From IMG/VR virus record IMGVR_UViG_3300035698_035307, positions 1-23,520 of that record: a stretch of DNA of 23,520 nt. One strand, written 5' to 3'. This document shows positions 5,619 through 19,471 of this stretch, piece by piece. Source of the stretch: a virus. Lineage: Duplodnaviria > Heunggongvirae > Uroviricota > Caudoviricetes. The notes below the pieces were generated by a model. It did no database searches. It was not told the origin of the DNA and saw only the letters and a list, made by a program, of their open reading frames with translations. A program made the position numbers and the translations under genes. How positions within the stretch are numbered: the first letter of the stretch is position 1; every line of letters starts with the position of its first letter.

Positions 5619-6076
5619 TATAAGTAAGAGCTAATTGACTCCCAGAAGGAAGTTAAATCTACATTAGCTGAAACTACATTATAAGTTATCTTAACAGCCC
5701 ATAATAAAGCACCTACTTTAACTATATTCCAAATGAATTTCCAAACACTCAGATTATCTAATTCTGGATATAATAAAATCAAGAATGCATTCACGCCAGG
5801 TTCTGTGATGTTTCTAAGTTCAGGTACAGCATAATCTGCTAAACCACATTTCAGTAAAATCTCATTATAAGGTTTTAACTGTTGAAGTACCCAAGCTTCT
5901 TTAACATATGAGTTGTTGTTAGCAACTTCTTCGGGTACATTAACGACCGTATAGATTCTACCAAGCTTATCAACGCGAAGATTGTTTTCATTTAAAAAAC
6001 CTTCAGCTCTTTTAGCCCCTTTATAAAATTTTCTCCAGATTTTTAATTCTCTGTATAGTGTAATAAAATACTTCAT
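5618..6076 (-). CDS. Hypothetical protein with C-terminal hydrophobic helix
   Basis: TAATG coupling to the nuclease gene. Confidence 0.75.
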   Translation of the reverse strand: MKYFITLYRELKIWRKFYKGAKRAEGFLNENNLRVDKLGRIYTVVNVPEEVANNNSYVKEAWVLQQLKPYNEILLKCGLADYAVPELRNITEPGVNAFLILLYPELDNLSVWKFIWNIVKVGALLWAVKITYNVVSANVDLTSFWESISSYL

Positions 6077-6565
6077 TTACCAAATAATTTCAATATCGTC
6101 AGCTTCTTCTTTACCCAATGTAGCTTGAAATTCTGCTTCAGCTGATTTGGCTTCTTTGTTGGCTGCGATTAGTTTAACTTTAATTTTTTCTCTCTTTGCA
6201 ACATCTTCTTTTGGAGTAGATAAAAACTCTTTTGTAATTTTCTGAACTCCTAATTGAGCTGCATGATGCTTATCAATTGCTTTTAATAATACTTTTGATA
6301 CTGTAGCTTTTGCTTCAAATACTTCAGGATATAATTCTTCAAGGTCTTCATAACCTGAATCTTCTAACCATCTCTTTAAATCTTTTTTACTTCCAGTAAC
6401 GAATGCTTGTGCTCCTTTTCCAAACTCTATAGATACTTTATGTTGTCTATTCCATTTGTCACATTCTTCAGGTGAATCCTGGCATGCGTAATCAACATCG
6501 ATTGTTATCTTCTTTGCTTCGTTCAAGTCGTGGAACTCATTAAAATTCTTTACAATATTTCCCAT
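6077..6565 (-). CDS. Putative internal head protein with capsid-targeting-like leader
   Basis: Start re-called at 6565 (MGNIVKNFNEFHDLNEAK), which removes the overlap with the sigma gene; GATATATA at 6586-6593; internal VFEAK site. Confidence 0.75.
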   Translation of the reverse strand: MGNIVKNFNEFHDLNEAKKITIDVDYACQDSPEECDKWNRQHKVSIEFGKGAQAFVTGSKKDLKRWLEDSGYEDLEELYPEVFEAKATVSKVLLKAIDKHHAAQLGVQKITKEFLSTPKEDVAKREKIKVKLIAANKEAKSAEAEFQATLGKEEADDIEIIW

Positions 6566-6585
6566 TTTTGATATATTATTTTTTT

Positions 6586-6593
6586 TATATATC
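6586..6593 (-). promoter_or_regulatory. GATATATA putative late promoter
   Basis: About 20 nt upstream of ATG 6565. Confidence 0.6.
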
Positions 6594-6596
6594 TTC

Positions 6597-7310
6597 CTAG
6601 ACACATTCCTCTTGGTACTTTTCAATTATCATTCTGCTGAGCATTTCTCTACCTCTCTTAATTCTATTCTTAACTCTCTGTAATGCTCGCTTATATTCTT
6701 TGTTGTAAAATGCTTCGCCTATTTCTTTTCTATCGAACTCCTCCTTATATGTTTCAATATTATCATCATGTTTGAACATAATATCTTTGTAACACATTCC
6801 ACCTATAATTCTATCATGTATGATATCTTTATAAAGAGGGCTTAAGTACTGAATACTATCGATAGCGATATTATATTTATCTTGTACCTCGTTATACTCA
6901 TCTAAAAAGTCTTGTTCTTCTTTGATGTCTTCCATTTCATAGTGATGAACACCATGTACAAATTCTCCACCCATTGAAGGTGTAATTCCTTTTTCGTTGA
7001 AATATTCGAGACTTGTTTTTCTCTTTTGTTTTTTAATGTATGACAAACAGTCATTCTTAGCTATTCTAAATGCCCAAGTTGTTATCTGTCCTTTTTCAGG
7101 ATGATATTTGTCAATTTGTGTGAATACTTTTGAAAAAGTATCAGCTGTCAAATCTTCAGCAGCATCTCTATCTTTTACAAAACCTTTAATATAGTTCATT
7201 AAACTAGGTTTCATTTTGATGTAAAGTTTGCTAAATGTTGTGTTGCTACGGCTCTCTTTGAACTCGTTTGCAAGCTGTGAATACGTTTCTTTCATTGCCT
7301 TTTTACTCAT
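6597..7310 (-). CDS. ECF-type (group 4) sigma-70 family factor
   Basis: Region 2 DAAEDLTADTFSKVF and TTWAFRIAKNDCLSYIKK; region 4 LSPLYKDII, YKDI, VKNRIKRGREML. Confidence 0.88.
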   Translation of the reverse strand: MSKKAMKETYSQLANEFKESRSNTTFSKLYIKMKPSLMNYIKGFVKDRDAAEDLTADTFSKVFTQIDKYHPEKGQITTWAFRIAKNDCLSYIKKQKRKTSLEYFNEKGITPSMGGEFVHGVHHYEMEDIKEEQDFLDEYNEVQDKYNIAIDSIQYLSPLYKDIIHDRIIGGMCYKDIMFKHDDNIETYKEEFDRKEIGEAFYNKEYKRALQRVKNRIKRGREMLSRMIIEKYQEECV

Positions 7311-7843
7311 TTTTTTTGATTTTTAAAGTCCTTAAATAATTCTATTAATCCACTTATCTCCTGCGGCTGATATGACCAATTGTCAGCACAAGCATTAATT
7401 CTGTTTGAGATAGTTAAATCTGTTGGATGGTCAAATAAACTATGACCGTGAAAGTGAAAAACACCCTTATCTTTTCCGGGCCAATCTAACATTGGCCAAT
7501 GAGATAATATAGTATTTGTCTTTGGTTCTTTATAAAAAGCTAACGGGATAATTTCAATTTTATCTTTTAGATATCTGCTAATTTCTAGAGCTGCATCATC
7601 ATAATCGCCCATCAATAGCTTTATACGGCCATTTAGTCGTATCAAGATATCTTCTGCTTCAAGTGGAGTCCACGCTAAATTTCCTAAATGATAAACAATA
7701 TCATCAGGACCTACTACTGCATTCCACTTTTCTATAATTGCCTCGTTCATTTCTCCGATTGCCTCGAATGGCCTGTTTGCGATATCCAATATCTCAATCC
7801 TTCCTAGAAAAGTATCAGATGTCACGAAAATTTTTCTCTTCAT
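7307..7843 (-). CDS. Calcineurin-like metallophosphoesterase homolog with degenerate metal ligands
   Basis: FVTSD, RPF..EMNE.II.KWN.VVGPDDIVYHLG, SHWPM, HGH scaffold; DxH, GD, GNH and GHxH motifs altered. Confidence 0.85.
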   Translation of the reverse strand: MKRKIFVTSDTFLGRIEILDIANRPFEAIGEMNEAIIEKWNAVVGPDDIVYHLGNLAWTPLEAEDILIRLNGRIKLLMGDYDDAALEISRYLKDKIEIIPLAFYKEPKTNTILSHWPMLDWPGKDKGVFHFHGHSLFDHPTDLTISNRINACADNWSYQPQEISGLIELFKDFKNQKK

Positions 7844-8800
7844 TTATGTGCCTATAATAAAACGATTATTAGTATTTTGAATTGTCTTCATGTCTAAATC
7901 ACTAGCAAAGTTACCAAGTCTGTGCATGGTATCTTCTGACATTTCTTTATCGTAAAAATCGTTATAAATACTGTGATACAACTTAACCGAAGCATCATAC
8001 GGTAATCCTGGTTGTGAATTGATTTCGATAATATACATTGCACCATCTTCATCTTTCATTAAATCTAATGCATAAATATCCACTTTACTGAAATTCTCAC
8101 GAACCTCTTTTAATATTTCTTTAAATTCATCAGGTATGTAATCTAATACAACTTTAGTATAGCCAAATTTCATAGCTTCGTCAGTTCCACCAGTACCTTC
8201 TTTTGCTTTCTTATTAAGTGCTTCTCTTTTCATGAACAACAATGGGTGTTCTTTAAAGAGTATTAATCTAAATTCTTCATCTATTTTAATCTTCTCAGAG
8301 AATACTTCAAACTCGTCTTTGTTTTCTCTTAATTCTTCTTTTAACTTAAAACTTTGAATACCTATTCCAGAATGGTTATTATCTGGTTTAGCAATGATTG
8401 GAAAACTAAGATTCTCTAATGCATCTTCTTTAGAAAATACTGTTTTAGGAACAAATTTACTTTTCTCCATTGTCATATGAAAATTCCGTTTACTAGAGAC
8501 AGATTTAACATCGTCTGGCTTATTGTAAACATTCTCTAATGGTATTAACTTATTTTCGATTAAGTACCTGCTAATGTCATTATTGTAATTAATAACAGGG
8601 TATTTTTGATTTATCTGATATGATAATTTCTTTTCAGTAAGTGGTAGCATAAAATTCTCTGTAGCATACTCCTTATAAGAGATATCAGTCCCTTTATTAG
8701 TATTGTCATATACTAAAAGTGCTTTAAATAATTCACCAAACTCTTCTTTTATAAATTGAGTGTAGCCTTTTACTTTTACGAAATTACTTTTTATACCCAT
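7844..8800 (-). CDS. ATP-grasp ligase (RimK/glutathione synthetase-like)
   Basis: VPKTVF, FPIIAKPDNNHSGIGI, EFRLILF, YALDLM, IIEINSQPG; N-terminal VKGYTQFIKEE leader. Confidence 0.88.
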   Translation of the reverse strand: MGIKSNFVKVKGYTQFIKEEFGELFKALLVYDNTNKGTDISYKEYATENFMLPLTEKKLSYQINQKYPVINYNNDISRYLIENKLIPLENVYNKPDDVKSVSSKRNFHMTMEKSKFVPKTVFSKEDALENLSFPIIAKPDNNHSGIGIQSFKLKEELRENKDEFEVFSEKIKIDEEFRLILFKEHPLLFMKREALNKKAKEGTGGTDEAMKFGYTKVVLDYIPDEFKEILKEVRENFSKVDIYALDLMKDEDGAMYIIEINSQPGLPYDASVKLYHSIYNDFYDKEMSEDTMHRLGNFASDLDMKTIQNTNNRFIIGT

Positions 8801-8810
8801 TGGTTTTCAA

Positions 8811-9110
8811 TTATTTTAGTAAGCTTGAGTCTGCTTTGATTTTTTCAACCCAATCTCTAGCTTCAGCAGCTTTCTCATAATCCTCTTCAACAATAAGAAT
8901 GTCCATATTATTTTCAAGTGCTATGAGAAAATCTTTCTTCTCAACTCTTAACGCAATACCAGTAGGTTGAAGTGTAACAAAAACTGCTAATTCTTGTTTT
9001 CCTTCAAGTACATCGATTACAGCTTCAAGAACTGCTCTTTTTACCTCAGAGCTTCTTTTCTTAAACTCTACAGTAATTTCTTCCTGTGTGTTTGCTTGTA
9101 TTTCAATCAT
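8811..9110 (-). CDS. Small protein with C-terminal UVR-like coiled-coil motif
   Basis: EEDYEKAAEARDWVEKI resembles the UvrB/UvrC motif EdyEkAAelRD. Confidence 0.65.
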   Translation of the reverse strand: MIEIQANTQEEITVEFKKRSSEVKRAVLEAVIDVLEGKQELAVFVTLQPTGIALRVEKKDFLIALENNMDILIVEEDYEKAAEARDWVEKIKADSSLLK

Positions 9111-9157
9111 ATGTAAATATACATTTAATATTCGTCACCCGAAAGCTTTAGCTACTA

Positions 9158-9165
9158 TATTTATC
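9158..9165 (-). promoter_or_regulatory. GATAAATA variant of the putative late promoter
   Basis: Intergenic, one mismatch to GATATATA and one to T4 late TATAAATA. Confidence 0.45.
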
Positions 9166-9197
9166 GAACTTTTTTGCTTCCATTTACTGCATTGGAG

Positions 9198-10085
9198 TTA
9201 TTTTTTAGTTTCAAGAAACACTCCTAATGCACCTTTATAATCTTCCTGAGTTCCACCTTCTTTAATCAGGTTTTCCATCGTCTTGAAAAATGTTTTCGTA
9301 GTTTTTGGAAATATAATTTCTTTGTACTCGCCATATTCGAATAATGGTTCTTTCAACTCAAAATGAGGTGAAGATACATTTTCTTCATTTTCAATCTTAT
9401 CTGCAGCATCGAAATGTCTTTCATAGAAATGAATATTGTCAGCTGAATGAAAATACGTACCGAGTTTTAATTCTGGATAGTATGGGAGCAACCATAATCT
9501 CATTTGTTGTAATACAATTGAAAAGAATGGGGCATCATAACTTAAACCAAAGAACATATCATTTGAACGTATTGTCATCTTCATGTTCAGAGTGTCTTCT
9601 CTTATAAAGAAATTCAGATACATCGTGCATACAAAATCTTTGTTACCAACATATTGAAATTTAGGTTGATTTAAGAACGCTATCGCTTGACGAGTATTCT
9701 TATCACTTCTTAGTGAGTTCAAGCACCAATAAAGTTGGTCACCGAATAATAAGTCACCATAATTCGAATTAATTTCACCACCTTCATCTGTTAGGTTTCC
9801 CCAGAACTTAGAAAAATTTGAAATGTAATCTACTGTACGTTCTTTTTTCAAATACCAGGCAAGTTCACCTGCTAAGTATTTCCAATTAAATGGACGTTCT
9901 TTAAAATCAAGTAATACCTTCGTAGGATTAAGTGGCATCGTATGCATATACAATTCCTTCACCTTTTGCCCCCTCGGCGCACTCTCATAACCATCATTCT
10001 TTATCTTACTTATAAGACTCTGGAACTCATGATTAATATCTTGCTTATGTTCTTTCTCGCTTAAATAGTTTGGTATTTTTGTCAT
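9198..10085 (-). CDS. Thymidylate synthase-fold enzyme, dCMP hydroxymethylase-like (T4 gp42 family)
   Basis: GEINSNYG, DKNTRQA, DFVCT (catalytic Cys), RSNDMFFGLSYD (Asp at the cytosine-specificity position), HFYERHF. Confidence 0.85.
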   Translation of the reverse strand: MTKIPNYLSEKEHKQDINHEFQSLISKIKNDGYESAPRGQKVKELYMHTMPLNPTKVLLDFKERPFNWKYLAGELAWYLKKERTVDYISNFSKFWGNLTDEGGEINSNYGDLLFGDQLYWCLNSLRSDKNTRQAIAFLNQPKFQYVGNKDFVCTMYLNFFIREDTLNMKMTIRSNDMFFGLSYDAPFFSIVLQQMRLWLLPYYPELKLGTYFHSADNIHFYERHFDAADKIENEENVSSPHFELKEPLFEYGEYKEIIFPKTTKTFFKTMENLIKEGGTQEDYKGALGVFLETKK

Positions 10086-10090
10086 TGCTC

Positions 10091-10951
10091 TTAATTATTT
10101 TTCAAAATTAGTTCCTTAAGTTCGGATTCAAACTTATAGAGTTTTAACAATGTCTCGTTCCTTTGTTTCATTAATTCTTTGAAGTTTTCAGTAGGAAGTG
10201 TACTCTTCAAATATAATGGAAATGTATTAACACATAGATAGTTCAGGTAATCAGTAACTAAGTCCTTCCAGATGATTCCTTTAATATTACTATGTTCTTT
10301 GTAAGTTTCGAAGAACTTCTCAATTAATGCAAAACTAAAATCTAATTCTTCAATGTCAAGCATATCTGATACGAATGACATGATTTCTATACTGATAAAA
10401 TCAAATGCTGCAAAATCAAAATCAATCAAAGTATACTTATCACCGTCCCATAAAATATTATGCTTACGAAAATCTCGATGTAATGCAATTTTAAGTTGTT
10501 TCTCATTGATACCTTTGATATCTTTTTGAATCTTCTTTCTGATACTTAAATCTCGTTTCAATGCGACTTTATTATTTACAGCTTCTTCCCAAGCCATTAA
10601 ATCATCGTACATTAATTCTTTATGAGGTAAGTCAATTGTATCACCTTCTTTCCAACAATGATTATGAATCTTAGCCATGTTCTCAGCTATAATTGAAACA
10701 GAAGTTACACCTAAGTTCCATTCACATTCTTTAACAACCTCATATCGACATTCAATTATCTCAGGGTCTGTATTAGCAGGATGGCCATAAATTCCTTTAT
10801 TAATTTCGAATCCATTTAGATTGTCAATGTTGTAAAATAATCTGGTTTGAAATATACCAACTCTGTAATCATATTTGCTCTTAGGCATATACTTAATAAA
10901 GACATCATCTCGTATTTCAGTACTGCTAGTGTTACCGCCGCTTTTATTCAT
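10091..10951 (-). CDS. APH/choline-kinase-like phosphotransferase
   Basis: MAKIH, LHRDFRKHNILW (HxDxxxxN) and LIDFD motifs. Confidence 0.85.
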   Translation of the reverse strand: MNKSGGNTSSTEIRDDVFIKYMPKSKYDYRVGIFQTRLFYNIDNLNGFEINKGIYGHPANTDPEIIECRYEVVKECEWNLGVTSVSIIAENMAKIHNHCWKEGDTIDLPHKELMYDDLMAWEEAVNNKVALKRDLSIRKKIQKDIKGINEKQLKIALHRDFRKHNILWDGDKYTLIDFDFAAFDFISIEIMSFVSDMLDIEELDFSFALIEKFFETYKEHSNIKGIIWKDLVTDYLNYLCVNTFPLYLKSTLPTENFKELMKQRNETLLKLYKFESELKELILKNN

Positions 10952-11915
10952 CTTTGTTGTAAATTTTTAGAAAGTCGTGTTCAATTGCATTGTCATTTGC
11001 TTTTGCCATTGTGGCCGTATAAAGAATTAAAGCCCACTTATAAAAGTATTCTGTTTTAAAATACGTTCTGTCAGGTTTATATAAATCTTTGTAAGTAGTT
11101 ATCGTACCACCATCGATATCCTCATGTTTACCAGCTTTCATAAATTCATCGACATAATGATATAAGATTCCATTTTCTTGAACCCATTCCTTATGTGTTA
11201 ATTCAAATGGCATTGGATGATACGTATGATTAGGGTCGAAGTCTTGTGACCAGGTAGGTTTACCACTTTTGTCACAATAATAATGCATACTAACTGTCTT
11301 GTATAGAAAGTGTCCCATTGTTAATTCAGGGTAAAATTCTGTAAGCCAACCTGTCATCATTTCTTGAAGTGTTGTAAATAAAATCACATCGTTTGCCCAT
11401 CCCATTGAAAGTGCAGTTCCTCTTGTTTCAAGAGTCATATGTAATTTATTATCTCGTATGATAAAGTGACAGTATATTAAACAAGGGTAGTGAACTTTGG
11501 GTCTTCTACTACCAAAAGATATTACTGCCTTTCTACTGTTCTTATCATCTCTGAGTACGTTTCTTATTTTGAGTAGTGACCATCTACTATTTCCTTGGCG
11601 ATTTTCATTGCCAAAGAACATGATATTGTCTTCAAACCCCATTGTTTTTTTGACCATTTCCCTTGAATGCATAACCCTCGGTTGGTTTTCATTAAAGATG
11701 TCAAAAAGTTCTTGATAAATGAAAGGCATATTTAAGCCTTTGATAGGTATGATTTTATCACGAGGATTTTTAATTAGTACAGAAGCATTCATAACTTCTT
11801 TAGTCCATTCTTTCCTGGCTTCTACTAATTCACCCTGGTCATCAATTAATTGTGCGAAGTACTCATATGCATCTCTTGCATTTTGTACTTCTGCATACTT
11901 CATATTATAATCCAT
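10944..11915 (-). CDS. Divergent thymidylate synthase-fold enzyme
   Basis: TKEVMNASVLIKNP, DKNSRKAVI, YPCL, FIIRDNKLHMT, TRGTALSMGWAND, GHFLYKTVSMHYY. Confidence 0.85.
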   Translation of the reverse strand: MDYNMKYAEVQNARDAYEYFAQLIDDQGELVEARKEWTKEVMNASVLIKNPRDKIIPIKGLNMPFIYQELFDIFNENQPRVMHSREMVKKTMGFEDNIMFFGNENRQGNSRWSLLKIRNVLRDDKNSRKAVISFGSRRPKVHYPCLIYCHFIIRDNKLHMTLETRGTALSMGWANDVILFTTLQEMMTGWLTEFYPELTMGHFLYKTVSMHYYCDKSGKPTWSQDFDPNHTYHPMPFELTHKEWVQENGILYHYVDEFMKAGKHEDIDGGTITTYKDLYKPDRTYFKTEYFYKWALILYTATMAKANDNAIEHDFLKIYNKDE

Positions 11916-11920
11916 AAATT

Positions 11921-12178
11921 CTATTTAAAAATTAAATTTGCTAAACCAACCAGAATCATTATTCCAATTACAATGCAAAAGAAAGCTCCTATTAAACCTA
12001 ATATGAAACCCCATCCAATCCAGAGAGGTGATGTAACCCACCACCATGACCAATTAGCTACCTGACCGACTTCACCTAATTTCATTACTAAGAATATAAT
12101 AAAAATGATAGTACTTAATTTCATACCATTGCCGGCTGTTTTTTGTACTGTTTTGTTTTTTAGTATGTTAGTTTTCAT
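11921..12178 (-). CDS. Small two-TM membrane protein (WSWWWV.SPLW phage family)
   Basis: IFLVMKLG..V.NWSWWWVTSPLWI pattern and hydrophobicity. Confidence 0.8.
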   Translation of the reverse strand: MKTNILKNKTVQKTAGNGMKLSTIIFIIFLVMKLGEVGQVANWSWWWVTSPLWIGWGFILGLIGAFFCIVIGIMILVGLANLIFK

Positions 12179-12215
12179 GTTATAAATTTAAGAAATTAGT
12201 TCGACATAATAAAGT

Positions 12216-12857
12216 TTATTTGAATATCTCATAAAGGTGATGGTCAGTTGCGTATCCTTTAGCTACTGCGAATTTCTTTTCAACTAATTTACCCATCATG
12301 TTAAACCTTTCTGAGCCAGCATCTTCATGTAATGCAATTAATATACCAGTCGAAGTCATGCTTCGTCCCATTGCTTCATCAAAATCTTTTTCTTTTTTGG
12401 TTTTCTTCTGTGTAACTTTACTGTACAGCGTAATTAACATGTCATTTGCAGCATCACCTTCAATAGTTTTATATTTGACCATGCCAACTTTAGAAGCTCT
12501 TTCTTTAACTTCTGAATGTGTAAGTGTTTCTGGTTTTTTTGAACGTTTCTTCTTTTGCATGGACACTTTGTCTAAGCCTTTGTCCATGTTACGTTCTTTT
12601 TTATTCTTTTTCTGCTTGGGCTTGGACACTTTGTCCACTTTGTCCACTTTGTCCACCTTTTTAGTAGGTTTATCTTTCTTTCTGGACACTTTGTCCACTT
12701 TAGTGTCCACTTTGTCTTCAGTAACTTTATTTTTATGCTTCTTCTTGGGCTTCTTCTCAACACTCGGTGTTTCAAACAAAGGTGTAAATCTTTTTTTCTT
12801 TCCGAAGAATTTCTCTTTTTCTTCAGGAGTCATATCACCCACTGATTTTCTTGCCAT
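12216..12857 (-). CDS. Lys-rich hypothetical protein with VDKV repeats in a central linker
   Basis: Globular-looking C-terminus, A-rich leader, co-directional with neighbours. Confidence 0.75.
   Translation of the reverse strand: MARKSVGDMTPEEKEKFFGKKKRFTPLFETPSVEKKPKKKHKNKVTEDKVDTKVDKVSRKKDKPTKKVDKVDKVDKVSKPKQKKNKKERNMDKGLDKVSMQKKKRSKKPETLTHSEVKERASKVGMVKYKTIEGDAANDMLITLYSKVTQKKTKKEKDFDEAMGRSMTSTGILIALHEDAGSERFNMMGKLVEKKFAVAKGYATDHHLYEIFK
12558..12717. repeat. Array of TGGACA-CTT-TGTC(C/T)A palindromes and 9-bp CTTTGTCCA direct repeats
   Basis: TGGACA at 12560, 12623, 12683; three tandem CTTTGTCCA at 12629-12655; T-tracts between units. Confidence 0.85.
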
Positions 12858-12908
12858 AATTATATTGTTTGTATCAAAAGTAATACATTAAAACGCAACA
12901 TAAAAGTT

Positions 12909-13244
12909 TTATCTGTCATCTCCCGAACCTCTTTCAGTTCCTCTGCTAACTCTACCTGCTAATTTTTCATTGTTTAAGTTTGCAATATCTTCAAGCGTAT
13001 AACCTAATTTACCGGCAAGTACTGAAAGATACCAAAGAGTATCGCCAAGTTCATTGCCAATTGCTTTCTTTGTAGTAGGTGTCAATTCGCCTTTGTCATC
13101 TCTGAAAAGTTTCTTGACCTTTCCTGCTACCTCTCCTGCCTCCTCAGACAGTCCAATTGATAAATATGTAAATGGATGGATATGTTCCCCTCCTGTAAAG
13201 AATGCATTCTCTAATGCACTCTCCTGATAATCATTCATCGTCAT
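12909..13244 (-). CDS. mazG: MazG-like nucleoside triphosphate pyrophosphohydrolase
   Basis: GLSEEAGEVAGKVKK, NELGDTLWYL, N.EKL..R and GSGDDR tail. Confidence 0.92.
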   Translation of the reverse strand: MTMNDYQESALENAFFTGGEHIHPFTYLSIGLSEEAGEVAGKVKKLFRDDKGELTPTTKKAIGNELGDTLWYLSVLAGKLGYTLEDIANLNNEKLAGRVSRGTERGSGDDR

Positions 13245-13617
13245 CTTCTATTCCTTTTTTAATTGTCATTAATACTGTATGTTTATCGATAGACATCTTT
13301 GTAATAATCTTATAAAGTGCTCTCAGTTCCTGTTCATTTGTTAATGTACAGACTGTTGTTTCGATAGGATTTACTCCTTGTTGGATAGTTATAAAGAATC
13401 CATTATAAGCAATGTACTCACCATTTTCACCGCGGACATAATTGTATCTAAATCTATAAACCTTTTGGCTCATAACAAAATGCAATCCCCCTAAACCATA
13501 TTTCTTGAATATGGCTAGGGTTAATTCTGTTTGGGGGTGATTCTGAGCTTCATGTTTTTGCTCAGTTATTATGCTACGACTTTTTCTTTTAATGTATTCG
13601 TCTCTTGCTTTACTCAT
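13231..13617 (-). CDS. Hypothetical protein
   Basis: Overlaps both neighbours in a translationally coupled arrangement. Confidence 0.7.
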   Translation of the reverse strand: MSKARDEYIKRKSRSIITEQKHEAQNHPQTELTLAIFKKYGLGGLHFVMSQKVYRFRYNYVRGENGEYIAYNGFFITIQQGVNPIETTVCTLTNEQELRALYKIITKMSIDKHTVLMTIKKGIEDDDE

Positions 13618-14194
13618 TTTTAGCTTTTTTAAATGGCCACTTTAATTTGCTGCCATCAGTCTTACTGTAAACTATCTTATCAGGTTTGCTTACTACAGCT
13701 TCCTTAAGCTTCTTTGCGTATTTCTTACCAGTTCCTGGTTTTAAGTATGCAACTGTACAGTGAGCATGATAGTCCGGGTAATCCGTTGTATGAGGGAACT
13801 CAGCTAATGTTTCATTCATTTTGTTTAAATCTTTTGAATTAACATCAAATTTCAGAACATCGAAGTCATCATTTTCAAACAACGAAAGTCTTTGCATTGA
13901 TACGATTGGGTCACTAAATTCATGTGCCATCATTGCCTTTTTGATATCATCATCATCATTGTCTTCGTGTAAACCATATAAAACAGTTACATGAGGTTCA
14001 TCTTCTCTACCATAATCTCCGTCCTTTTCATAAACATCTTCGTCATCAATTGATTCTTGTAAGTCAGCCCAATTCTTTTCGTCAACGTTTAAATATAACA
14101 TAACACAACCGTAATCATGTGCAGTACCTGATTTCTCTTCTACTTTATCATCTTCGATAAATTGTTCAAATGTTTTTACATGTAATCTTTCCAT
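13610..14194 (-). CDS. 2H phosphoesterase, Acb1/T4 gp57B-like
   Basis: PHVTVLY and DYPDYHAHCTVAY HxT motifs; N-terminal KTFEQFIE leader. Confidence 0.85.
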   Translation of the reverse strand: MERLHVKTFEQFIEDDKVEEKSGTAHDYGCVMLYLNVDEKNWADLQESIDDEDVYEKDGDYGREDEPHVTVLYGLHEDNDDDDIKKAMMAHEFSDPIVSMQRLSLFENDDFDVLKFDVNSKDLNKMNETLAEFPHTTDYPDYHAHCTVAYLKPGTGKKYAKKLKEAVVSKPDKIVYSKTDGSKLKWPFKKAKNE

Positions 14195-14206: not shown

Positions 14207-14752
14207 TTATTCGTAATATCTATAAAATGAGTTAACAACTTTTCTTTTTGTTTTAGAACCATCATATATTACTGCAACAGATTTTACTTTAGAACCGTTA
14301 GCTATAAAAAAGCTTTCAATTTTCCTTGCAGTACCACCTGAGAAGTAAGAATCATCTACAAATACAAATGATTTCTTTTTGACATCAAAATCTTCAGGCT
14401 TATAAGATTCAACACCTTTACCGAGTGTTAGCATCTTTCCATTAAATGTAACGAATCCTTTGCATTTAAAAGCCTTCTTCTTATAAAGCTTCATTAATGT
14501 ATCACCAAATCCTCCAGATGACGCAATATATTCATTTTCAAATGGTTTTAAAAGTGCTATAATCATTTTCTTATTTAATACATTTTTGATTTGGTCATCA
14601 AGTGCATCAAAAAATGGTTTACCACCTTTATGTTTTACTAACAGTTTATCTATAAGTTCTTCTAAGTTCTTGTAAATAGAATCGGGCGGATTAAGGCCGC
14701 CCGGTTTTTCTGTTATAAATTCTTCGAATGTTTTTAATTGTATCTTTTCCAC
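14207..14752 (-). CDS. Type I phosphoribosyltransferase-fold protein
   Basis: FVFVDDSYFSGGT PRPP-binding loop; GTG start overlapping the upstream TAG; KTFEEFITE leader. Confidence 0.8.
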   Translation of the reverse strand: MEKIQLKTFEEFITEKPGGLNPPDSIYKNLEELIDKLLVKHKGGKPFFDALDDQIKNVLNKKMIIALLKPFENEYIASSGGFGDTLMKLYKKKAFKCKGFVTFNGKMLTLGKGVESYKPEDFDVKKKSFVFVDDSYFSGGTARKIESFFIANGSKVKSVAVIYDGSKTKRKVVNSFYRYYE

Positions 14753-15861
14753 TAAATTAAGCTTTTTTCAAATTTAAAATATATCTTTGTGTAATATATA
14801 TCAGCTTTTTCTTTTTGGCCAACAAATACGCTTGCATATCTTAATCTGATTGCTATTTTAGGTGCCATAGTCCCTTCAGCTATTGTCGATAATGATTGAG
14901 CTCCCATATATGGAAGGTACATTCCAGGTTCATTATTCTTTGGCATTCTTGAGACTGTAATCGAATTATCATCCCATCTTTTCATTGGGTCAACGAAGAT
15001 TGTGATTCCATTAAAAGTACCTGCTATATAAGGTTCTCCACCTGTAACCATTGATACTTTAGCTTCAGAAGGTAATACAAACCCTTCTATGTCTTGTAGA
15101 ATTGTACCAATCTGACCATTAACTACAGCTACATTACCTGCGCCTCTTCTTGTTGTTATCGCGAGCATATTACATGCACTTAATATAGCAGTGATGATTC
15201 TACGATGAGCTTCTTGAATTGTCATATCTGATGTAATGACATAAGCTTTTTGGTAAACACCCTTGAAATATTTAGGTAACCATTTTTCTAAGAAAGATAA
15301 ATTTTTGTGAATCCACTTAGTTCTTTTCTCTTTCTTTAAATCTTTATCAGTCCATGACTTACGATAAGATATTTCACCATAGTTGTCTATTTTAGCTAAG
15401 ACATTTTTCCAAATGGCCATTTTAGACTCATTAATAAGAACACCTTCAGTTTGCGTAACTGCATCTATACCTATTGATTTTAGATGTTCAATCATTTCTC
15501 TTGTGATAGTTGCAGAAACTTGGTAAGTTTGTTGTTCTATTGCTTGATTAAATAACTGTAAGCCGATTGTCTTCATTGGCACTGATTCACCCCTTGTAAG
15601 AGGTTGTTCAAAACCAGTAACAAAATCTGTTTCTTTTTCATCAGATGTTGGTTCCATTTCAACAAAATCTAAATAAGACATTAAACCTATAGGTAATTCA
15701 ACCTTTTGAACATTTGTAAAATATTTCAGAGCATCATCTTCAAATATCTTCTGATTCATTACAGCGATGAAAGCATCTGTCTTCGCTTGCTGAACAGGGT
15801 CCACTTCCTGCATCTGTAGATGTGGGGGTAAATTGTTTAAATTAAAATTTTCCATATACAT
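14752..15861 (-). CDS. T4 gp23-like major capsid protein paralog (short, divergent)
   Basis: TREMIEHL, TRRGAGNVAVV, IFVDP, PYM, TMAPKIAIRLRYA resemble gp23-family motifs. Confidence 0.8.
   Translation of the reverse strand: MYMENFNLNNLPPHLQMQEVDPVQQAKTDAFIAVMNQKIFEDDALKYFTNVQKVELPIGLMSYLDFVEMEPTSDEKETDFVTGFEQPLTRGESVPMKTIGLQLFNQAIEQQTYQVSATITREMIEHLKSIGIDAVTQTEGVLINESKMAIWKNVLAKIDNYGEISYRKSWTDKDLKKEKRTKWIHKNLSFLEKWLPKYFKGVYQKAYVITSDMTIQEAHRRIITAILSACNMLAITTRRGAGNVAVVNGQIGTILQDIEGFVLPSEAKVSMVTGGEPYIAGTFNGITIFVDPMKRWDDNSITVSRMPKNNEPGMYLPYMGAQSLSTIAEGTMAPKIAIRLRYASVFVGQKEKADIYYTKIYFKFEKSLI
14795..14802 (-). promoter_or_regulatory. GATATATA putative late promoter for PRTase and 2H genes
   Basis: About 43 nt upstream of GTG 14752. 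Confidence 0.5.
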
Positions 15862-15983: not shown

Positions 15984-16172
15984 TTACTCCGTATGAGCTT
16001 TTTTGACAATCATTACATCTTCTGGTAATGGATTGTCTTTAAATTTTGCTAGAAAAGCTTTCAAAGTTTTTTTAGCTTTACTAGGCGATAGCTTACCTAC
16101 AGGAACAATGAAAGTTCTTCTAACTTCTCCTTGTCCTGTTTTACACCAATAGTCTTTCTCTAATCTTGTCAT
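15984..16172 (-). CDS. 62-aa protein resembling the T4 gp20-type portal clip region
   Basis: RRTFIVPVGKLSPSKAKKTL....KFK resembles the gp20-family RRxFYIDVGxxPxxKAxxxL pattern; ATGA coupling to the upstream gene. Confidence 0.65.
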   Translation of the reverse strand: MTRLEKDYWCKTGQGEVRRTFIVPVGKLSPSKAKKTLKAFLAKFKDNPLPEDVMIVKKAHTE

Positions 16173-17020
16173 ACTAATTCTCTTTTTAACGGTAATGTCA
16201 TGCAGGCAAACCCTCCTGCCATTTTTCTAATTTCACTCATTTTACAAGTATGAATTTTCATACCTTGATGACATTCTAACATTGCTTTAACTTGTGGGCA
16301 ATCATCAGCCATTATAATTTCCCTTGGACCAATCACTAAAATATTAGTGGCATAGTTCTTACTGACCTCGTCAAACTCAGACAGTGTAATCACATTCTTA
16401 TATCCTAATGTTTCTTGACTCAGTTCTGACCTTATGAGTAACGTATCAGCATCCAGAATCATATGAGCACCTAATATATGTTGAGGTATTCCTTCAGGTA
16501 AAGCTTCGACTGTTTTAAAATTAATATGAGGATATAATTGTTGTAATGTTTCTGCTACCTTTGGAGAAGTTCTATTACCTACAGATAAAATTACTTCATC
16601 TGGTTTAGTTCTTAACATATCAGCTCCTTCAAATGTAATATCTTCACTGAACTCAATTAATTTCCCAGCGTATTGTTCTTTTCTTAAATACTTAATAAGA
16701 TTAAGTTCTTCACCTTTTCTTACATCATATCTTAAATTCCCAAGTATAATTGAATCATCTAAAACTGCAGCTACATCTCTCATATAGATTGCATTAGCGT
16801 GATATAAATAATCAGGAGTATGCATATCAGTATGTACTTCAATACCTAATTTGTTTAAAAGGTCCCATAATGCTGAAACTTCTTCTAATACTACGTCATA
16901 GTTTGGTTGAAATTCATACATCGCCTCATCAGCTGTCATCATTTCTAGTTCACCTCTTCGAGGTATATGTAAGAAAACTGATTGTAGTTTTCCATATTCT
17001 GAGTTATATCCTACTTCCAT
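16169..17020 (-). CDS. Amidinotransferase/arginine deiminase/DDAH (pentein) family enzyme
   Basis: NSEYGKLQSV, NAIYMRD, RKGE, FEGAD, RTS, QHIL, GGFACMTLPL (catalytic Cys). Confidence 0.9.
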   Translation of the reverse strand: MEVGYNSEYGKLQSVFLHIPRRGELEMMTADEAMYEFQPNYDVVLEEVSALWDLLNKLGIEVHTDMHTPDYLYHANAIYMRDVAAVLDDSIILGNLRYDVRKGEELNLIKYLRKEQYAGKLIEFSEDITFEGADMLRTKPDEVILSVGNRTSPKVAETLQQLYPHINFKTVEALPEGIPQHILGAHMILDADTLLIRSELSQETLGYKNVITLSEFDEVSKNYATNILVIGPREIIMADDCPQVKAMLECHQGMKIHTCKMSEIRKMAGGFACMTLPLKRELV

Positions 17021-17481
17021 TATGAGTATTTTATTAATGTTATTAATTCCTCAAATTCTTCAACTTGTGGTATATTATATTTACTGCAAACTATGTCAAT
17101 GTTTCCTTTTCTCCAGAAACCTTCTGGGCAATAAATAACTAGCTTACCTGATTTAGCGTATAAGCCAAACTCTAACAGTGAGATAGGTGCTATACTATCT
17201 TTTGTCAAAACCATTATAATTTTATCAGCTAATTCTAAATGTTCTAATTCCCAATTAACTTGTTCATTAAATTTTGGATTATCAATTGATTGTTCCCATG
17301 TATCATCCCATTCATCTCTACGTGGATTGTAAAGTATAACAGGAAAGTCTTTTACAGCTTCTGTAATCTTTAATTGCCAATCTTCGGCTTTACCCATATC
17401 AATTGACCCTGCAAGAAAGATACTTTTATATCCTTCTACTTTTGCAGCATATCCGGGTGGTTTTATTACAATTGTTTTCAT
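17020..17481 (-). CDS. Nucleoside 2-deoxyribosyltransferase-like protein
   Basis: IFLAGSI, DWQ, NPRR, QVNWE..L..AD, APISLLEFGL. Confidence 0.9.
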   Translation of the reverse strand: MKTIVIKPPGYAAKVEGYKSIFLAGSIDMGKAEDWQLKITEAVKDFPVILYNPRRDEWDDTWEQSIDNPKFNEQVNWELEHLELADKIIMVLTKDSIAPISLLEFGLYAKSGKLVIYCPEGFWRKGNIDIVCSKYNIPQVEEFEELITLIKYS

Positions 17482-17482
17482 T

Positions 17483-17728
17483 TTAAAATCTTGCTGCGCC
17501 TTGTACAGGCAGTTCTTCAGGTGTTCCTTTACTATTTCTAACTATTTTGAAGCATTTCTTGAATGTAACTTTGTCCATATTTACAAGATTGCTAGGGTGT
17601 ATAGTATGAATGAGAATGTCATTAGTTTCTTTAGCTATACGAAACATTACATAATTATTTAGCTTTAATCCAGGCAGTCGATATCTGCTGGGGAGTATCT
17701 TTTCATATGTAGCATTATAGTATCTCAT
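17483..17728 (-). CDS. Hypothetical protein
   Basis: 1-bp gaps to both neighbours within the operon. Confidence 0.7.
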   Translation of the reverse strand: MRYYNATYEKILPSRYRLPGLKLNNYVMFRIAKETNDILIHTIHPSNLVNMDKVTFKKCFKIVRNSKGTPEELPVQGAARF

Positions 17729-17729
17729 A

Positions 17730-18956
17730 CTAAATCCATTTATCTGTGTTCATTGAATATCCTAATCTATACATCATATCTTGAACATGTGGTTCTTTTG
17801 CTAACCAATTCATCTCATGTTCTCTTTTCTTCCACCTGTATAAACCTGGCTCATCTGTTGCCATCGTTACTGGCATAACTCCAATTTCTACGTGAGGTAT
17901 TCCAATATAGTCACATATATCATCTGCTATTTCTTGAGGACTTATTAAGAAGTCTTCGAACTTAACTCTCATTGTATGAACCTTACTTTCAAGAATTGAA
18001 TTATGTGCAGTGTACCATTGATTTAAACAAACTTGTTCAAGTGTAGAATTTGTATATTGTTTCCAATTAGCAGGTAAGTCAAATTTCCACCATTTCTTTC
18101 CAAAAGCTTTAACATCACTATAACCTTTAATATTGAGTTCTAAATCTTGTGATTCCATATTATGTGCAAAGAAACCATTATCAGATAACCAACCGTCCAT
18201 TAAACCGTTTGTTGTTTGTGCAAATCCTCTACTTAAGTGGATATACTTTATCTCTGCATTTGGGAATAGGTTCTCGAATAATCCAATTCTATAACAGTCT
18301 TGAGGTGTCTTAAATAAAAGCGGATGTGTAGCTGCGTCTTCTTCAGTAAAACTTCTTTTCTTAGAAGGTATTACGAAAGGTGGTTCCTCAATCTTAATCT
18401 GTTCAGTAAATAATTGTTTGTCTTTTGCAAATAAATCATAATAACCTCTCTTATCTGGCATGAAACTATTAATGAATCGCTTAGTAGATTCTTCATAGTT
18501 ATCACTGTTACCGTAAGCTTCGTGAACTCTCTGTTCTATTAATTCATGAAGTTCTGGCTTCATTTCAGGATATTGATACAGCATTCTTTTCTGCCAGTCA
18601 ATTGTAGTTCTTCTTACATCAATGAATGGAATATTAATACCCATATCTGAAAACATAATATCAAGAAGCTTTTGTTTATCATTAACTTCAGTAAATCCGT
18701 CAGACTCTGTCCAAGGAAATGCATTCTTTGTTAAGATGTAATAAGGTTCTTCTTCACCAGAAAGATAAGCAATATCATCACTCTTAGACAATATTGATTT
18801 CATTAATGTTGAACCAGAACGAGAAGCTGTAAGGATTACTACAATCTTTTTTACTTTCTCATTTAGATTCCCAGTTGGCTTTATAAAACCTTCTCCAAAT
18901 AATTTATCATTGACATTGTCAATAGCGTTCTCTACTCTTTCTGTGTATTTGTTCAT
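17730..18956 (-). CDS. PAPS-dependent sulfotransferase-family protein
   Basis: ILTASRSGSTLM (5'-PSB loop), FKTP, FPNAEIKYIHLSR (3'-PB), VKFEDFL.SP, YRLGY. Confidence 0.85.
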   Translation of the reverse strand: MNKYTERVENAIDNVNDKLFGEGFIKPTGNLNEKVKKIVVILTASRSGSTLMKSILSKSDDIAYLSGEEEPYYILTKNAFPWTESDGFTEVNDKQKLLDIMFSDMGINIPFIDVRRTTIDWQKRMLYQYPEMKPELHELIEQRVHEAYGNSDNYEESTKRFINSFMPDKRGYYDLFAKDKQLFTEQIKIEEPPFVIPSKKRSFTEEDAATHPLLFKTPQDCYRIGLFENLFPNAEIKYIHLSRGFAQTTNGLMDGWLSDNGFFAHNMESQDLELNIKGYSDVKAFGKKWWKFDLPANWKQYTNSTLEQVCLNQWYTAHNSILESKVHTMRVKFEDFLISPQEIADDICDYIGIPHVEIGVMPVTMATDEPGLYRWKKREHEMNWLAKEPHVQDMMYRLGYSMNTDKWI

Positions 18957-19471
18957 GCTTTCATTCTTTCGTTTACAAAATCGATTACCTGTTGGATATG
19001 TTCGTCTTCGATATGAAAATTGTCTGGATTAATTACAACAGGACATGTTGCAAAACTAGATAATACCTTCATATACTTATCCACATGTGTTTTAAAGTCT
19101 TTACCTTCTTTACTACTCCGCTTGGCTGCTAGTGCTGGCCAATTTTCTTCAGTAGTTGCTATAAATACTGCGCATTTATGAATGTGACTTTTAGATACTC
19201 GTAAAATTTCTTTACGATAACCTTCGTCTTCAGAATATGCAGCATCTGTTAACCCTCTATCCCAGAGAATTACTCTTTTATAATCATTTATCTGGTCTAA
19301 TCTTTCGATATTATTATGCATCCAGAAATTATAATCTTGCCATCTCGATTGCATTCCTATATTAATAGCACCTGCCCCCTTGAATCTTATCCATTCAGGT
19401 TTTTGTTCTAATAATTTATCAATGAGATATGTTTTGCCAACTGTTGACAAACCTTCTAAAAAAACTATCAT
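18953..19471 (-). CDS. P-loop nucleoside monophosphate kinase (TMPK/dNK-like)
   Basis: IVFLEGLSTVGKT Walker A and ILWDRG DR motif. Confidence 0.82.
   Translation of the reverse strand: MIVFLEGLSTVGKTYLIDKLLEQKPEWIRFKGAGAINIGMQSRWQDYNFWMHNNIERLDQINDYKRVILWDRGLTDAAYSEDEGYRKEILRVSKSHIHKCAVFIATTEENWPALAAKRSSKEGKDFKTHVDKYMKVLSSFATCPVVINPDNFHIEDEHIQQVIDFVNERMKA

Follow-up and report, generated by a model that had tools for sequence, protein, structure and literature searches.

The question raised by the DNA described here is what a phage would do with two thymidylate synthase (TS)-fold enzymes encoded on either side of a small-molecule kinase. The genes in question occupy nucleotides 9198 to 11915 of a 23,520-nucleotide stretch (the window), which is the first 23.5 kb of the 151.5-kb IMG/VR virus record IMGVR_UViG_3300035698_035307, and all three lie on the minus strand. 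In the direction of transcription they code for TS2, a divergent TS-fold enzyme of 323 amino acids with a MilA-like C-terminal helical domain (nucleotides 10944-11915, recognized by PHROG matches and an AlphaFold2 (AF2) model), a 286-amino-acid small-molecule kinase with the APH/choline-kinase fold (nucleotides 10091-10951, Pfam APH and AF2 model), and TS1, a predicted T4 gp42-type dCMP hydroxymethylase of 295 amino acids (nucleotides 9198-10085, Pfam TS match and residue signature). We consider it highly probable that this module is a pathway, not described before, for C5-modified cytosine nucleotides, and we class it with the TS-based systems of C5 pyrimidine hypermodification.

The record is about 54% complete as estimated by CheckV. 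Its major capsid protein showed 58% identity to that of LR756500.1, a 462-kb uncultured huge phage, and about 41% identity to those of the Lak megaphages of Prevotella, similarities that indicate that the record is a fragment of a giant phage genome. Nearly all genes are carried on the minus strand. The preliminary description of this DNA had taken the close spacing of the trio as a sign of a single module, and a direct reading of the junctions gave the same distances: the TS2 stop codon and the kinase start codon are both found within ATGAATAA, an overlap of 8 bp, and the kinase stop codon TAA is followed by the 5 nt GAGCA and then by the TS1 ATG. Judged by its junction, the kinase is translationally coupled to TS2. 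The three open reading frames (ORFs) are real genes, since orthologues with 35-76% identity occur with their arrangement unchanged in five other contig lineages. A promoter and terminator scan of nucleotides 6500-13500 produced counts no higher than those of shuffled sequence and gives no operon boundaries. A DNA-level search of the GenBank phages with the 2.7-kb module produced zero matches, and a pattern-method search of IMG/VR with the kinase and with TS2 produced zero relatives; the relatives of both proteins discussed below came from searches of protein collections.

TS1 was recognized by the Pfam family Thymidylat_synt (PF00303; 8e-21, 74.8 bits), and its top PDB sequence match was the T4 dCMP hydroxymethylase (5e-18). 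It was aligned with E. coli ThyA, T4 gp42, RB69 gp48 and the SP10 dUMP hydroxymethylase, all taken from annotated records. In the E. coli numbering, which is used throughout, TS1 and its orthologues carry W80, Y94, D143, C146, R166, S167, N168, D169, G173, D177, H207 and Y209, and eight of these (D143, C146, S167, N168, D169, D177, Y94 and W80) are the same in TS1 as in T4 gp42. A 2026 study of enzymes with experimentally verified products found that N177D confers cytosine specificity, that L143D/E accompanies a hydroxymethyl rather than a methyl product, and that D169N marks the flavin-dependent 5-hydroxy-dCMP synthases (PMC13326640). The combination of N177D and L143D/E with Asp169, Ser167 and Tyr94 is present in TS1 and its orthologues and not in TS2 (H143, G167, A169, F94), and at position 169 TS1 has Asp where RB69 gp48 has Asn in the same alignment. 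As the verified signature of 5-hydroxymethyl-dCMP (5hm-dCMP) synthases is complete and D169N is missing, TS1 is predicted to be a gp42-type dCMP hydroxymethylase, that is, a 5hm-dCMP synthase. In the tree it falls among ordinary hydroxymethylase-signature enzymes, apart from TS2.

Both TS-fold proteins had been described as having Asp at the base-specificity position, as in T4 gp42, and as being unlike ordinary ThyA. HMMER and MAFFT alignments place Asp in both at the position of E. coli Asn177 and T4 Asp179 (GLSYD in TS1, GWAND in TS2). The parallel with gp42 held for TS1, which is gp42-like, but it does not extend to TS2, whose folate site differs at positions 167, 168, 169, 80/83 and 94. 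Neither protein is an ordinary ThyA: Asn177, responsible for uracil specificity, and the hydrophobic Leu143, responsible for water exclusion, are missing from both (at position 143, TS1 has Asp and TS2 has His), and the features that they share with ThyA are the TS fold and the catalytic Cys146. A reading of the locus as an ordinary ThyA with a dNMP kinase was excluded by residues 143 and 177 and by the fold of the kinase. No ThyX and no dUMP-type (Asn177) ThyA was found in the 151-kb record. TS1 and TS2 are paralogs, as had been proposed, but only distant ones, with 32% identity over a 101-residue core; their location in separate clades rules out an origin by recent tandem duplication and identifies them as old paralogs.

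TS2 has no Pfam match and was recognized by PHROG TS families at 3e-15. Its AF2 model (pLDDT 87.5) has MilA (5jnh) as the best structural match, with a TM score of 0.71 over the full length including the C-terminal helical domain, followed by the HY126 dCMP hydroxylase, the T4 dCMP hydroxymethylase and many thymidylate synthases; 9iqu and 9iqc are among these fold matches. The signature of TS2 is R21 E58 R126 K127 H143 C146 L147 T165 R166 G167 T168 A169 D177 H207 Y209, in which the residues that hold the nucleotide and those for covalent catalysis are retained (R21, E58, R126/K127, C146, R166, D177, H207 and Y209; the catalytic Cys is Cys145 in the numbering of TS2 itself) and the cofactor side is rebuilt (H143, L/M147, T165, G167, T168). 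Position 167 is Gly or Ala, position 169 varies among Ala, Glu and Asp with no case of D169N, and position 94 is F, the Tyr94 hydroxyl being gone in most members. A deletion of about 11 residues is found at the site of W80/W83, and an invariant aromatic-G-x-E-x-R motif stands where the NSNYG segment with Tyr94 would be. The catalytic Cys, the nucleotide contacts and the new invariant set persist in homologs with as little as about 30% identity. When 1.84 billion cluster representatives were searched exhaustively with HMMER, just four clusters were returned for TS2 at E<=1e-30. Among the 139 full-length nearest TS-like representatives, nearly all of which have D143-C146-T147-M165-R166-S167-N168-D169-D177-Y94, the TS2 clade alone has H143, L/M147, T165, G167, T168 and A/E169. 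This clade is monophyletic (FastTree support 0.946), and its sister group (0.998) consists of two intermediate forms, P0026 and P0029. On the evidence of these residues, the folate site of TS2 has apparently been lost.

The kinase matched Pfam APH (PF01636) at 3e-7 with 30.8 bits (cut-off 23.2). The APH catalytic loop H-x-D-x4-N and the Mg-binding D-x-D/DFG-like motif are both found in it, and K20, H158-R159-D160...N165 and D177-F178-D179 (kinase numbering) are invariant in 16 homologs with 35-76% identity. The AF2 model (pLDDT 91.6) is a bilobal kinase fold that in Foldseek matched, with probability 1.00 and TM scores of 0.5-0.6, the amicoumacin kinase AmiN, APH(2''), methylthioribose kinases and choline kinases; aminopropanol and choline/ethanolamine kinases are likewise among the nearest structures. 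All of these nearest structural relatives phosphorylate hydroxyls of small molecules. This fold is not the P-loop kinase fold of the 5-hydroxymethyldeoxyuridine (5-hmdU) DNA kinase (5-HMUDK). A tblastn search of 50,697 GenBank phage records with the kinase, gp311 of phage G and RB69 being included in the set, yielded zero matches.

The order TS2, kinase, TS1 recurs in the five contig lineages mentioned above (L002/L003, L004 together with a 17-kb contig, L005, L009 and L010), with kinase identities of 35-76%. In the closest relative, L005 (kinase 76% identical), a 169-amino-acid ORF with MORN-like repeats, five copies of 'WY-NG-LHREDGPA-E', lies between the kinase and TS1 (L005:8939-10050), and a 53-amino-acid remnant, a second copy of the TS1 N-terminus, stands ahead of the full TS1 gene. 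Two more distant lineages also combine a TS2-type gene with the kinase. In L006/L015, where TS2 is about 30% identical, the order is P-loop kinase, sulfotransferase-like protein, arginine deiminase (ADI)-fold enzyme, TS2, uracil-DNA glycosylase (UDG)-fold protein, a 322-amino-acid protein and Fpg/Nei, and the 322-amino-acid protein is remotely homologous to the kinase (hhalign 98.8%, E 1e-16; Pfam APH 5e-5; BLASTP 31%, 2e-17). The UDG-fold and Fpg/Nei-fold genes are thus interleaved with TS2 and the kinase in this region (L015:17367-20995), which is directly followed by an IS605 OrfB/TnpB (Cas12f-like) gene. In L040 a P-loop protein is followed by the TS2-like P0029, directly afterwards by a kinase homolog, and then by a UDG-fold gene. 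The C-terminal half of this homolog is 38% identical to the kinase (6e-12) and the gene looks frameshifted: it is split into ORFs of 193 and 135 amino acids that meet at base 1648 (L040:1067-2055), for which a frameshift or an assembly error may be the explanation. Taken alone, the 193-amino-acid ORF gives a weak collinear match to the N-terminal half of the kinase, and only the C-terminal piece is significant. In each context read, the kinase was seen solely beside TS2-type genes. With the gene order retained in five lineages and the two genes combined in two more, the finding named in advance as fatal to the idea of one module, a kinase not conserved next to TS2, was not encountered.

A fourth lineage, L037, carries at nucleotides 5656-8451 a TS1-like gene (285 amino acids, with the hm-dCMP signature), a P-loop kinase (161 amino acids), the TS2-like P0026 (221 amino acids, with an intermediate active site) and an ADI-fold gene (262 amino acids). 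It is an independent case of two TS-fold genes sandwiching a kinase, which there is a P-loop and not an APH enzyme. Profile comparisons of the L037 neighbours (262, 333 and 457 amino acids) with the kinase and with the sulfotransferase showed no similarity; the 262-amino-acid protein matches the C-terminus of the ADI-fold enzyme. Across the four deep lineages compared (window-type, L006/L015, L037 and L040, most of the related contigs being short), a P-loop kinase was found beside or near TS2-type genes in all four, an ADI-fold enzyme in three (the fourth contig being too short to tell), the APH kinase in three, a sulfotransferase-like protein in two, and an adjacent TS1-type gene in two. As far as these contexts go, TS1 is the least constant partner in the module.

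The same P-loop, sulfotransferase-like and ADI-fold genes are present in the window within a tightly packed minus-strand run at nucleotides 16169-19471, which also includes an 81-amino-acid ORF and a gene for a nucleoside 2-deoxyribosyltransferase (NDT)-like protein. The P-loop protein, similar to nucleoside monophosphate kinases (nucleotides 18953-19471, minus strand, 172 amino acids), has a weak PHROG thymidylate-kinase match (2e-5) and no tblastn match in GenBank phages, and its homologs adjoin TS2-type genes in L015, L037 and L040. The sulfotransferase-like protein (nucleotides 17730-18956, minus strand, 408 amino acids; Pfam Sulfotransfer_3, 1.5e-11) has an RSGST motif resembling the loop that binds 3'-phosphoadenosine 5'-phosphosulfate (PAPS), and its orthologue in L006/L015 immediately precedes the ADI-fold gene, two genes upstream of TS2. 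The ADI/DDAH-fold enzyme, of a type that modifies guanidino groups (nucleotides 16169-17020, minus strand, 283 amino acids; Pfam ADI, 2e-16), keeps the C-terminal catalytic Cys motif GGxxCM in a DDAH alignment; it has no match in GenBank phages, and its homologs adjoin TS2-type genes in L015 and L037 and lie near one in L009. As all three genes stand beside TS2 in L015, they probably serve the same pathway as the trio, and by gene context the trio is part of a larger conserved set with them. No counterpart of this linked set was found in the 50,697 deposited phage genomes.

TS-fold enzymes add Cys146 to C6 of the pyrimidine and then form an intermediate with an exocyclic methylene at C5. The family reaches this methylene by attack on methylene-tetrahydrofolate (methylene-THF), Tyr94-assisted removal of the C5 proton and elimination of THF, and in the last step hydride or water is added to it. 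An enzyme such as TS2, without D169, without W80/W83 and mostly without the Tyr94 hydroxyl, would be expected if the substrate already has a C5-CH2-X leaving group. Since the gene coupled to TS2 codes for a hydroxyl kinase and the next one for an enzyme predicted to make C5-CH2OH, the simplest relay would run from TS1 to the kinase to TS2. We put forward this specific order tentatively, at somewhat under an even chance. The preliminary description had already suggested the hydroxymethyl group, or else a small co-substrate of TS2, as what the kinase may phosphorylate. TS1 would convert dCMP, methylene-THF and water into 5hm-dCMP, as predicted from its signature; the APH-fold kinase would phosphorylate the 5-CH2OH group, turning it into a leaving group, to give 5-(phosphooxymethyl)-dCMP; and TS2 would bind this nucleotide through its retained phosphate, sugar and cytosine contacts, add Cys146 to C6, expel phosphate to form the exocyclic methylene, and let a new nucleophile add to it. 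This nucleophile would probably be an amine, such as ammonia, an amino acid, arginine or agmatine, and His143 together with the Glu and Arg of the new motif may handle the leaving group and the nucleophile. Such a half-reaction needs neither folate nor Tyr94-assisted proton abstraction, which matches exactly what TS2 has lost.

The remaining enzymes could be accommodated in the same scheme, in which the whole pathway would act before DNA replication and provide the giant phage with a non-canonical C5-modified cytosine nucleotide. The side chain would be tailored by the ADI-fold enzyme and the sulfotransferase-like protein, joined in this lineage by an ATP-grasp ligase. The catalytic Cys motif of the ADI-fold enzyme suggests a side chain bearing a guanidino group, and the ATP-grasp ligase-like protein (nucleotides 7844-8800, minus strand, 318 amino acids; Pfam Dala_Dala_lig_C, 4e-8; PDB D-Ala-D-Ala ligase, 2e-4), whose gene is found only in the window and the L002 lineage, suggests amide formation on the amine. 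The P-loop kinase may phosphorylate the modified dNMP towards the dNTP, and a MazG-type NTP pyrophosphatase (nucleotides 12909-13244, minus strand, 111 amino acids; Pfam MazG, 1e-7; PHROG 229, 2e-29; kept in L002 and L005) may remove the canonical dNTP. A dCMP/CMP deaminase gene is present at nucleotides 136399-136857 of the record, and this enzyme and MazG fit a T4-like nucleotide economy. There is a considerable chance, though well below even, that TS2 represents a new reaction class of the TS fold, a folate-independent C5-methylene transferase that would use Cys catalysis to re-form the exocyclic methylene from a kinase-activated cytosine nucleotide and join it to an amine, leading to a hypermodified cytosine, perhaps one bearing guanidino or sulfo groups.

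Several observations weigh against the relay and against a complete loss of folate use. In L015 no TS1 was seen in the 25 kb around TS2, 8 kb further upstream being included, and no APH kinase was found near the two TS genes of L037; a strict three-enzyme relay is for these reasons not universal, and, going by gene neighbourhoods, it is the P-loop kinase and the ADI-fold enzyme rather than TS1 that are the deepest partners of TS2-type genes. In the sister forms P0026 and P0029, S167 and D169 still accompany D143 or E143, so that the loss of folate use in TS2 may be recent or incomplete, and the deletion in TS2 makes the alignment near Tyr94 uncertain. Besides, sugar phosphorylation is the predicted function of those APH-fold kinases of phage DNA-modification clusters whose neighbours are known (the C-terminal domain of RB69 p052-53 and phage G gp311). 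The tighter and older link of TS2 with the kinase than with TS1 would also agree with an alternative that we judge unlikely, in which TS2 modifies C5 of dCMP or CMP directly with a non-folate electrophile or cofactor, the kinase phosphorylates the product of TS2, and TS1 works in parallel or separately. The TS fold has a precedent for such a switch of cofactor in the flavin-using RB69 gp48 and HY126 AfhB (9iqu and 9iqc, as noted, are fold matches of TS2), and the new conserved motif stands at the would-be folate site. Nevertheless, TS2 does not have the D169N mark of the known hydroxylases, most of its members are without the Tyr94 hydroxyl that would be needed to remove the C5 proton once an electrophile has joined an unsubstituted C5, and TS1 is a neighbour in the window and five other contig lineages (six in all), as is a TS1-like gene in L037. 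An improbable alternative for the kinase is that it leaves the base untouched and makes an activated donor, such as a sugar-1-phosphate or phospho-alcohol, for later attachment to 5-hydroxymethylcytosine. The RB69 domain, with its APH fold, is a predicted arabinose kinase, gp311 has as neighbours, not far from the TS-like gp319, a HAD phosphatase, a glucose-1-P thymidylyltransferase and alpha-glucosyltransferases, and the best structural matches of the kinase described here include choline and ethanolamine kinases. A nucleotidyltransferase or glycosyltransferase would have pointed to a sugar kinase, but no NTP_transferase, NTP_transf_3, GT1 or GT2 domain (PF00483, PF12804, PF00534, PF00535) was found in the 151-kb record, itself about 54% complete, or beside the kinase in L002, L004, L005, L009, L010, L015 and L040, and no GenBank phage protein, those of RB69 and gp311 included, is similar to the kinase in sequence. 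The only trace was a sub-threshold 15-bit match to the T4 alpha-glucosyltransferase family at G000:C1:58163-58387, which spans an in-frame TAA and is probably due to chance.

The structural similarity of TS2 to MilA, which as noted includes the C-terminal helical domain, raises the alternative of a ribonucleotide route like that of MilA/BcmA. In it TS2 would act on CMP, the 5-substituted cytosine would be freed by a deoxyribosyltransferase-type or SLOG-type N-glycosidase, and the kinase would phosphorylate the hydroxymethyl group of this base, a role comparable to that of BcmD/ThiD in bacimethrin synthesis; the freed base would be exchanged into DNA or act as an antimetabolite. We consider this route quite unlikely. 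The Gly/Ala167 of TS2 resembles the Ala of the ribo-preferring MilA and BcmA (PMC5175136), but position 126 is Arg in TS2 and Lys in those enzymes, and their Asp169 and Asp143 are lacking. A candidate N-glycosidase is available in the NDT-like protein (nucleotides 17020-17481, minus strand, 153 amino acids; PF15891, 2e-34; PDB 4mcj, 1e-30), whose gene is present in L002 and L005 and has a YAcAr/SLOG protein in its place in the P0016 contig; UDG-fold genes in L015 and L040, with Fpg/Nei in L015, interleaved with TS2 and the kinase, could be read in the same way. Against this, the NDT-like gene is a lineage-specific accessory outside the conserved core, being absent from the L015, L037 and L009 neighbourhoods, the closest structure of its product is the uncharacterized 4mcj and not MilB, and no pyrimidine base-exchange enzyme is known. 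Finally, the loss of the canonical S167, D169, Y94 and W80 and the lack of a Pfam match could mean that TS2 is an inactive or regulatory paralog, such as a nucleotide-binding partner of TS1 in a heterodimer, with the kinase as an unrelated passenger, for example an antibiotic or metabolite kinase. This is very improbable, as the catalytic Cys, the nucleotide contacts and the new invariant residues are conserved to about 30% identity, TS2-type genes exist without an adjacent TS1, and the kinase occurs only beside TS2-type genes. The reading of the module as a pathway for C5-modified cytosine nucleotides, with TS1, kinase and TS2 acting in that order as its tentative form, is the one that we prefer.

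Other genes surround the trio. A metallophosphoesterase-like protein is encoded downstream of TS1 (nucleotides 7307-7843, minus strand, 178 amino acids; PHROG 547, 8e-30; PDB 1xm7, 9e-4); in every window-type lineage its gene follows TS1 directly or after one or two genes and is kept in L002, L004, L009 and L010, and in the loci that extend past TS1 this gene and a sigma factor come after it. Between the MazG gene and a weakly recognized phosphoribosyltransferase-like gene lies that of a 2H-phosphoesterase (nucleotides 13610-14194; Pfam Acb1 (anti-CBASS) and 2'-5' RNA ligase), which is kept in L002. Also kept in L002 is a gene located among those of nucleotide metabolism (nucleotides 14752-15861) that codes for a 369-amino-acid paralog of the T4 gp23-type major capsid protein, 38% identical to the product of the true capsid gene (564 amino acids, nucleotides 44441-46135 of the record).

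DNA hypermodifications defeat restriction enzymes and CRISPR and are a source of enzymes with which modified DNA can be made or mapped. To our knowledge, all known C5 pathways begin with a TS-family enzyme. The chemistry that follows is far better known for thymine than for cytosine. Full-text literature searches revealed neither the pairing of a TS-fold enzyme with an APH-fold kinase nor a sulfotransferase, an ADI-fold enzyme or an amidinotransferase in phage DNA modification. The locus offers three items that can be tested: a TS-fold enzyme with an apparently folate-free site, a dedicated APH-fold kinase and a linked enzyme set. If the proposed pathway is correct, the logic of activating a hydroxymethyl group and then substituting it would extend from thymidine at the DNA level to cytosine at the nucleotide level, and uncultured giant phages related to Lak would have a new base, which would partly explain why such genomes may resist sequencing or cutting. 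Should TS2 belong to a new reaction class, a hypermodified cytosine not seen before would enter megaphage DNA during replication.

Among known systems, TS1 is closest to T4 gp42 (PDB 1B5E/1B49), with which it shares the fold and the diagnostic residues D143, C146, S167, N168, D169, G173, D177 and Y94. It differs from gp42 in being only about 30% identical, in a C-terminal extension of about 50 residues, and in its surroundings, as TS1 adjoins a kinase and a second TS-fold enzyme in a giant phage whereas gp42 is found beside glucosyltransferases; TS2 diverges from gp42 at positions 143, 147, 165, 167, 168, 169, 94 and 80/83. With the CMP hydroxymethylases MilA and BcmA of nucleoside-antibiotic pathways (PDB 5JNH, 5B6D), TS2 has in common the fold, the C-terminal helical domain, the cytosine-type Asp and a small residue at position 167. 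However, MilA has Asp169, Asp143, Tyr94 and Lys126', as compared with Ala/Glu169, His143 and Arg126 in TS2, and the sequence similarity between the two is marginal (E 0.09). The flavin-dependent 5-hydroxy-dCMP synthases RB69 gp48, DLP3 gp80 and HY126 AfhB (PMC13326640, PDB 9IQU) set a precedent for what is proposed for TS2, as they have abandoned folate chemistry while keeping Cys146 and Asp177, but their D169N marker is missing from TS1 (Asp) and TS2 (Ala/Glu), and they have no link to an adjacent APH kinase.

The C-terminal domain of RB69 p052-53 and phage G gp311 provide further cases of an APH fold near a TS-like pyrimidine-modifying gene. These are fused or adjacent to nucleotidyltransferases and glycosyltransferases, unlike the kinase described here, which is coupled to TS2 instead. 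In Bacillus phage G (L039, NC_023719.1 224448-243140) the gp311 block includes the HAD phosphatase gp310, the glucose-1-P thymidylyltransferase gp309 and the alpha-glucosyltransferases gp306 and gp313, and lies a few kb from the thymidylate-kinase-like gp315, the dCMP deaminase gp317 and the TS-like gp319; this region looks like a cluster for a glycosylated hydroxymethyl-pyrimidine.

The closest parallel in logic is thymidine hypermodification, in which a dUMP hydroxymethylase is followed by the P-loop 5-hmdU DNA kinase and an amine then replaces the (pyro)phosphate (Lee et al. 2018, 2021; PMC5889632, PMC8989533). The module proposed here would follow the same plan, with a handle introduced by a hydroxymethylase, activation by a kinase and substitution with a nucleophile by a third enzyme. 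In the thymidine systems the bases are uracil and thymine, the kinase and the substitution enzymes act on DNA after replication, and the latter do not have the TS fold. The module of the window, by comparison, is predicted to act on cytosine, as indicated by Asp177, its kinase has the APH fold, and its candidate substitution enzyme, TS2, is itself of the TS fold, which implies that the substrates would be mononucleotides.

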